Source: Eledone cirrhosa
Taxonomy: Eukaryota
Direction: 5' to 3'
Assembly (NCBI GenBank): GCA_964016885.1
Contig: OZ024743.1
Coordinates: 364,002,001-364,066,000 of the forward strand
DNA: 64,000 nt
Made by a program: the position numbers and the translations under genes. Below, piece after piece: positions 25,921 through 26,740 of this stretch. Position 1 is the stretch's first letter; each line of letters opens with the position of its first letter. The notes under the pieces were generated by a model. It saw only the letters and a program-made list of their open reading frames with translations, did not search any database and was not told the DNA's origin.

Positions 25921-26740
25921 AATTAGAATTAATATATATAATTAGAATTGGTGCTCTGAAATAGCGATATATATATGAATGTATATACAGTGTATTTTGC
26001 AATACACTGTATGCTTAAGTAAAAGCATTTCGAAGACCTTACGCTTTTGATTTAGAGTAGTGACAGTCTCACTTACTTTAAATTTTCAGCAAACAGGGGA
26101 GATAAAGTTGACAGAGCTCTGATTCGTACTTTTTGATACTTATCAAAGCTAAGTACTCCACCTGTCTGCTGAAAATCATGAATGTTTGATTCTTATAGAA
26201 TTCTAGTAATAATCAGGAACTGATTATACAGAGCGGTTGCCGGTCAAGCAGAAATTGAAAATTAGAATTGGTGCTCTGAAATAGCGATATATATATGAAT
26301 GTATATATAGTATATTTGGCAATACATTGTATGCTTAATTAAAAACATTTCGAAGACCTTACGCTATTGTTTTAGAGTAGTGACAGTCTCACTTACGTTA
26401 AATTTTCAGCAAACGGAGTTTGCTGAAATTAGTTTTGGTGCTATTTCAGAGCACCAATTCTAATTTTCGATTTCTGCTTGACCGGCAACCGCTCTGTATA
26501 ATCAGTTCCTGATTATTACTAGAATTCTATAAGAATCAAACATTCATGATTTTCAGCAAACAGGTGGAGTAGTTAGCTTTGATAAGTACCAAAAAGTACG
26601 AAACAGAGCTCTGTCAGCTTTATCTACACTGTTTGCTGAAAATTGAAAGTAACACTACTCTCAAACAATAGCGTAAGGTCTTTGAAATGCTTTTAATTAA
26701 GAATACAGTGTATTGCAAAATGCACTATATATACATTCAT
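25921..26740. mobile_element. HHR-containing tandem repeat B: ~1.5 x 320 bp (- sense) plus one inverted unit
   Basis: Period 320 (25941 vs 26261). HHR at 26575-26619 (+): agct-TTGATAA-gtac-caaaaa-gtac-GAAA-cagagctctg-TC-agct. Mutated copy at 26106-26150 (-). Confidence 0.8.

Follow-up and report, generated by a model that had tools for sequence, protein, structure and literature searches.

The three tandem repeats A, B and C that lie in the window, by which we mean the whole 64,000-nt stretch of Eledone cirrhosa DNA analysed here, are, judged by their sequences, subfamilies of a single hammerhead lineage without an ORF. We consider it likely that this retrozyme lineage enters (TA)n as two-arm insertions, made by a PLE RT/GIY-YIG protein that copies a circular monomer RNA, and we hold with high confidence the broader statement that a retrozyme is moved here by PLE machinery.

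A, B and C were homologous to one another over the whole unit and placed among TA tracts (Table 1), in a 3.0-Gb host genome where TA microsatellites are abundant. Pairwise identity was 82% between A and B, 71% between B and C and 68.5% between A and C, and together with the periods and positions these values bore out the original prediction of homologous 317-, 320- and 310-nt repeats. Scanning the window for the block, TTCTATAAG and the GGTCTT..AAATG motif showed that all of them were present in each of the three repeats and restricted to them, in agreement with the common block and downstream motif that had been described. With a GC content below 50% and a unit length within 150–400 nt, these tandem repeats have the properties by which retrozymes are recognised, and by such sequence criteria the element is an animal non-LTR retrozyme (PMC7229834). 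Both A and B were found to consist of two inverted arms, a feature that had previously been overlooked.

Table 1 Features of the window and one PLE locus elsewhere in the genome
Feature	Position	Strand	Remarks
Repeat A	21475-22414		period 317
A left arm	21475..22085	-	1.93 units; 3' end is tail site S2 and continues into (TA)n
A right arm	22085..22414	+	1.04 units, inverted; 3' end is S1 (internal TA run)
A hammerhead, type I, U3-A8	22234..22277	+	predicted cleavage after 22273
Further A hammerheads	21677, 21994	-	descriptor scan
TA-rich tract, long	22663..25921	.	89% AT; target for left end of B
Repeat B	25921-~26732		period 320
Tail-end duplication of B, short	25921..25940	.	borders TA tract; from sequence
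B left arm	25940..26414	-	~1.5 units; 3' end is tail site S2
B arm 5'-to-5' junction	26415..26439	.	carries short snap-back inversions; from sequence
B right arm	26440..26732	+	~0.9 unit; 3' end is S1, in TA run
Tail segment of B	26440..26464	+	flanked by the two recurring insertion end points (putative RT start sites)
B conserved block	26471..26533	+	GACC with predicted GGTC pairing; ends in invariant TATAAG (putative promoter-like)
B hammerhead with extended outer stem	26550..26641	+	U3-A8 core 26579-26584; predicted cleavage after 26615
GGTCTT..AAATG motif of B	26677..26689	+	predicted GACC partner
TA-rich tract left of C	27377..28405	.	
Repeat C	28405-30013		period 310, 5.2 identical units
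C array	28405..30013	+	single arm, 5.19 identical 310-nt units; 3' end is tail site S2
C hammerheads, C3-G8	28578 + n*310	+	minimal stem III palindromic
PLE family 1 gene, 5'-truncated, RT/GIY-YIG	15360-16403	+	frames up to ~713 aa in family
PLE family 3 locus L316	contig C1, 48.763-48.770 Mb		young family

A descriptor scan placed a type I hammerhead in each unit of A, B and C and reproduced the stems and cores proposed for them, with U3-A8 in A and B and C3-G8 in C. Two details had escaped notice: stem II of C starts with a U.U mismatch, and the minus-strand hammerhead of B (U3 at 26146) has lost A15.1, leaving one intact core between positions 25921 and 26740 (U3 at 26579). Rfam Hammerhead_HH9 matched A with an E value of 1.5e-5 and B with 0.0018, both under the gathering score; the Rfam search of C returned no hammerhead match, and the scan of the whole window was dominated by microRNA matches to TA repeats. 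Folding of the hammerhead regions gave z values from -5.9 to -8.0, and the minimum-energy folds did not reproduce the complete hammerhead core. The RNAalifold consensus recovered the outer stem and stem II, did not recover stems I and III, and paired the GACC of the block with the downstream GGTC.

Other hammerheads were also present in the window. An unrelated family, whose core is likewise U3-A8 and whose stem III is palindromic, was seen at 14850 (+), 42137 (-) and 42612 (+), and further hammerhead-like sites at 9429 (-), 9564 (+), 27284 (+), 24293 (-), 24546 (+), 53614 (+), 62811 (-), 22565 (-) and 22586 (+). Many members of these additional families form inverted pairs adjoining TA tracts, and still more occur in the genomic loci.

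To score covariation, we aligned 23 units with readable ribozymes, hand-picked, with decayed ones dropped, from 77 clusters comprising 195 distinct near-full units, on a structure drawn by hand from A and C, ignoring kinship among the units. In this structural alignment two-sided changes were found in 17 of the 23 pairs, and 91.9% of the cells were paired, compared with 34–47% in slid-partner controls. Pair 3-8 was Watson-Crick in all 23 chosen copies (12 C-G, 11 U-A). Among all 195 units it was U-A in 101, C-G in 50, something else in six (each combination once) and unreadable in 38; that is, 151 of the 157 readable cores carried U-A or C-G. A tree built without the ribozyme columns contained three core-pair changes, at least two of them forced, and rejected a single U3-A8 clade (p-AU 0.0003), a hypothesis set after viewing a first tree. 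As read from this alignment and tree, pair 3-8 has switched two to three times within the lineage while staying paired. The covarying pairs, together with the finding below that no PLE ORF is attached, support the earlier proposal that a diversifying non-coding lineage has been under selection for its ribozyme structure. Exchange of U3-A8 for C3-G8 is not in itself new, as the U3-A8 variant is already in print for PLE hammerheads, namely those of Schistosoma (PMC4209133); its recurrent natural flip in one alignable lineage makes a tidy case of ribozyme-core selection.

Families A, B and C proved to be genome-wide rather than local, which had likewise been missed: the exact 33-nt core of C has 4,225 genome copies, and the block pattern 18,950 exact copies against none for its reversed control. 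The first 100 listed of these 18,950 block matches fell into 24 loci across 29.7 Mb and contained a second trio within ~15 kb on contig C1, whereas uniform placement predicts 0.003 trios within 20 kb. Thus, the clustering of three families in 9 kb is real yet general; it did not hold up as a special feature of this place, and we read it as a common preference for TA tracts, which act as a hot spot. Variant searches added subfamilies E and F (C3-G8, near B) and G (U3-A8, near C) and recovered the older families H, I, J and K; a unit of ~310–320 nt without an ORF was kept across subfamilies down to family H. At contig C2, 230.633-230.647 Mb (L246-L247), an old array of the B type was observed, in which more than 20 units have diverged and the ribozyme cores are decaying. 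A distinct hammerhead repeat of 448 nt, which carries a perfect octamer, was seen at L022:2820-3268 and also in L021, L085, L142 and L250, and its hairpin domain is arranged like that preceding S1 in A, B and C.

The anatomy of the insertions was examined at 71 loci (29 best B matches, 23 loci of A or C chosen from lists of matches, and 19 taken from the block listing), a non-random set drawn from ranked or ordered lists. Two arms were joined 5'-to-5' in 54 of them, and the other 17, including C of this window, were single-armed or complex. Arm ends were assigned to S1, an internal TA run whose exact base is uncertain because it blends into the (TA)n target, or to S2, ~26 nt beyond and scored 18–34 nt into the tail. 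One S1 end and one S2 end were found in 43 of the 47 classifiable two-arm loci (p 2.8e-9 against 50%), the remainder comprising three loci with two S2 ends and one with two S1 ends; seven more two-arm loci had an unclassified end. Directly after 47 of 62 terminal tails stood (TA)4+, an AT-rich or microsatellite target. In PLE copies the 5' arm is inverted and a single end carries a tail (PMC8557442), described as the sequence that separates two RT start sites (PMC11167929). The two-arm layout with a one-sided tail, present in the same 43 of 47 loci, is the PLE signature. At one locus (L090), both arms of an A-type insertion had tail ends and the flanks were identical, and this locus is an inverted duplication taking in flanking PLE DNA; a weak block match there, 1.26 kb behind a PLE fragment, belonged to an older retrozyme family and was rejected as a helper link.

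The arms also carried information about their template. The longest reached 14.4 units and crossed the cleavage site repeatedly, and 5' ends lay near the cleavage site in 4 of 108 cases, the chance level (p 0.66). Given this read-through without a pile-up of 5' ends, cut linear monomers are not the template. Full units were present at least twice in 25 arrays and in both arms of 14; in these 14, each variant occurred either in every unit or in one alone, and at two loci a 311-nt period was shared by both arms. The arms of a locus thus share one haplotype, and each locus looks to have been copied once from one homogeneous template. In sequencing runs X1 and X2, C assembled as one 340-nt contig (310 + 30), which is expected alike from tandem DNA or a circle; both runs also contained PLE pieces.

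A single homogeneous template per locus speaks against growth in place, by which one inserted unit would have expanded into satellite DNA through slippage or the unequal crossover proposed for retrozyme arrays (bioRxiv 10.64898/2026.07.22.740005). Expansion of this kind would yield head-to-tail arrays, and local duplication does happen, as indicated by the only two of the 25 arrays with variants in several but not all units: in L089 they recur at a 3-unit period, and in L092 one variant occupies three of four units. The near absence of such shared variants elsewhere, the inverted pairing of multi-unit arms that end at S1 and at S2, and the arbitrary 5' ends of both arms are left unexplained by this account, which we regard as very unlikely. 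The long homogeneous arms without cleavage-site pile-up fit one-step insertion from circular RNA, and they fit an uncut multimer template as well. The latter reading keeps the same element and PLE enzyme, takes an uncut linear read-through transcript of a homogeneous array as the template and makes circles a by-product or absent; it predicts arms that are just as homogeneous, end at the same sites and run through the cleavage site. In vitro, unprocessed RNA was the main PLE substrate and cleavage was dispensable for insertion (PMC11167929), and eight of nine predicted retrozymes in a preprint failed to cleave (bioRxiv 10.64898/2026.07.22.740005), observations that count against our preferred account. 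However, the repeated compensatory change in core and stems implies a role of cleavage in copying, active ribozymes in a transcript of 14 units would be expected to cut it, and purely linear copying would, we infer, only maintain or shorten arrays. Because the ribozyme structure is under selection, we prefer the circle and judge a circular rather than uncut linear template to be reasonably probable, with the linear transcript a rather unlikely account.

It could also be argued that A, B and C are not independent at all and are simply the pseudo-LTRs left behind by autonomous PLEs truncated at the 5' end. Truncation, tandem arrangement and inversion are common among PLE copies, pairs of opposite-strand hammerheads 100–700 bp apart are in print (PMC8557442, PMC4209133), and Xenopus retrozymes match PLE pLTRs (bioRxiv 10.64898/2026.07.22.740005). 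Yet an ORF-attachment screen of 256 sequences (a 1.17-Mb sample) found no PLE ORF joined to the monomers, and an RT plus GIY-YIG ORF between pLTRs was absent from A/B/C-type elements in these sequences. The screen did show 24 same-strand neighbours of block and PLE ORF in nine loci; they were parted by TA runs of at least 14 nt, with one exception in which unrelated DNA filled the 1.2 kb between block and ORF. Upstream of each hammerhead stood the next unit, never GIY-YIG sequence, and the constancy of the ORF-less unit down to family H likewise speaks against remnants. We therefore consider pLTR remnants extremely improbable and return to an independent retrozyme moved by a PLE.

Which PLE might act as helper was addressed in three abundant families at 30 loci each. 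The block was absent from all three and their tails differ, so the autonomous PLE carrying the block that the original prediction proposed to look for did not emerge from these loci. Family 1 has a frame of 713 aa and ~76,000 candidates, family 2 a frame of 847 aa, and family 3 frames of up to 1,167 aa, with copies 98–99% identical and ~36,000 candidates; further PLE families in the genome are known here as fragments, and the Pfam search gave no match for the PLE fragments of the window. Of 36 ends of the autonomous family 3, 11 lay at +27/28 and 17 at +86/88. These sites are 60 nt apart, and family 3 thus follows the same two-site rule as the retrozyme. By eye, we noted a faint likeness to family 3 in the bases just past S1, and another between the GGTCTT..AAATG motif and family 2. 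To the left of A, a frame at ~20100-21290 (-) was rejected as a PLE, and we take it from its motifs to be a broken non-LTR LINE-type RT; a TA run separates it from A. The segment after it, 21300-21392 (+), resembles PLE family 2 at the 3' end with its tail. Elsewhere in the window, an unbroken 1,056-aa frame at 36613-39780 (-) has endonuclease-like and RT-like motifs, from which it is presumably a LINE, and a 468-aa open frame at 916-2319 (-) without repeat-like motifs is probably a host exon.

The tail segment spans the interval between S1 and S2, and the conserved block accordingly starts with the tail. Its suggested role as an RT site agrees with the position of its first 26 nt, which fall between both insertion end points. 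The other suggested role, that of a promoter, perhaps applies too, in view of the TATAAG that is invariant in all 23 aligned units and unpaired in the consensus fold; the block is thus partly tail and perhaps partly promoter-like. In older families and the 448-nt family, ATGCAAAT was located 79–91 nt upstream of the core (16 of 17 pattern matches in a selected set). The promoter of newt satellite 2 includes an octamer. That satellite is also a hammerhead repeat, of ~330 nt, with an internal snRNA-type Pol II promoter (PMC2220036), and it resembles the older relatives of A, B and C in which a perfect octamer lies upstream of the ribozyme, whereas A, B and C themselves are without the ATGCAAAT perfect octamer. 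We treat an octamer/TATAAG promoter as a lead, not as a result.

These observations can be assembled into a proposed cycle. The arrays would give rise to transcripts, with an internal Pol II promoter near TATAAG as the probable start, and the hammerheads would cut the multimers into monomers; those of C, having a palindromic stem III, would probably pair up as dimers to do so. A host ligase would then close the monomers into circles. The PLE protein would bind the hairpin domain closed by GGTC/GACC and nick both (TA)n strands, with cDNAs primed at S1 and at S2; each cDNA would make a varying number of turns around the circle before the two were joined. If copying were limited to circles with a working ribozyme, this would explain why pair 3-8 flips yet stays paired. 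In its fullest form the proposal describes a lineage of viroid-like RNA circles, lacking both a protein of its own and a parent that matches it in sequence, on which a PLE primes twice, runs up to 14 rounds each way and inserts both concatemers together into (TA)n in a single step, in successive waves H, F/G/E, B, A and C with two to three core flips. We put the chances of this full account at about even. If it is true, the insertion ends are a genomic record of rolling-circle reverse transcription that names both start sites.

Compared with known systems, the element class is not a separate novelty, since it equals the published non-LTR retrozyme (PMC7229834). Animal non-LTR retrozymes (PMC7229834; bioRxiv 10.64898/2026.07.22.740005) share with A, B and C the ~300-nt AT-rich tandem units with one type I hammerhead each, the lack of an ORF, thousands of copies, structured RNA and the presence of PLEs in the same genome. 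The accessible text of these papers does not mention a tail, a (TA)n target or two arms in inverted orientation, features that are reported here, and treats PLE mobilisation as a hypothesis or a phylogenetic argument; more generally, we found no account of tail and inverted-arm ends for retrozymes in the main texts of the open-access literature. For A, B and C the circles are a prediction, and no matching PLE pLTR was found in the families checked. EN+ PLEs (PMC4209133, PMC8557442, PMC11167929) are alike in their type I hammerhead, U3-A8 variant, palindromic stem III, inverted 5' arm, one-ended extension and AT-rich or (TA)n target. They differ in having an RT/GIY-YIG ORF, in place of which the arms of A, B and C are concatemers of the 310–320-nt unit, and in tail length, which is ~26 nt in A, B and C compared with 30–40 nt in the published PLEs and ~60 nt in one of the PLE families of this genome. 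MRC1 and similar Chlamys elements (PMC8557442) are also non-autonomous PLE derivatives with multicopy head-to-tail insertions; their 3' end is like that of an autonomous family and they are mostly without hammerheads, whereas in A, B and C the hammerhead is conserved and the three PLE families checked contained no autonomous match.

The headline of the original prediction is therefore already known, and the insertion ends are a useful addition to it. What is added comprises the repeated core switch, the S1/S2 ends of the two arms and the long homogeneous arms without cleavage-site pile-up. How retrozymes return to the genome is unsettled: PLEs have been named a strong candidate for their mobilisation (PMC7229834), and the mechanism is described as still to be worked out (bioRxiv 10.64898/2026.07.22.740005). 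Here, a PLE integration signature is carried by nearly every two-armed copy, and the family is young, with many identical units, so that single insertion events can be read. The family thus points to two exact candidate start sites of the RT, along with the target and the template on which circle-templated insertion could be examined in vitro.
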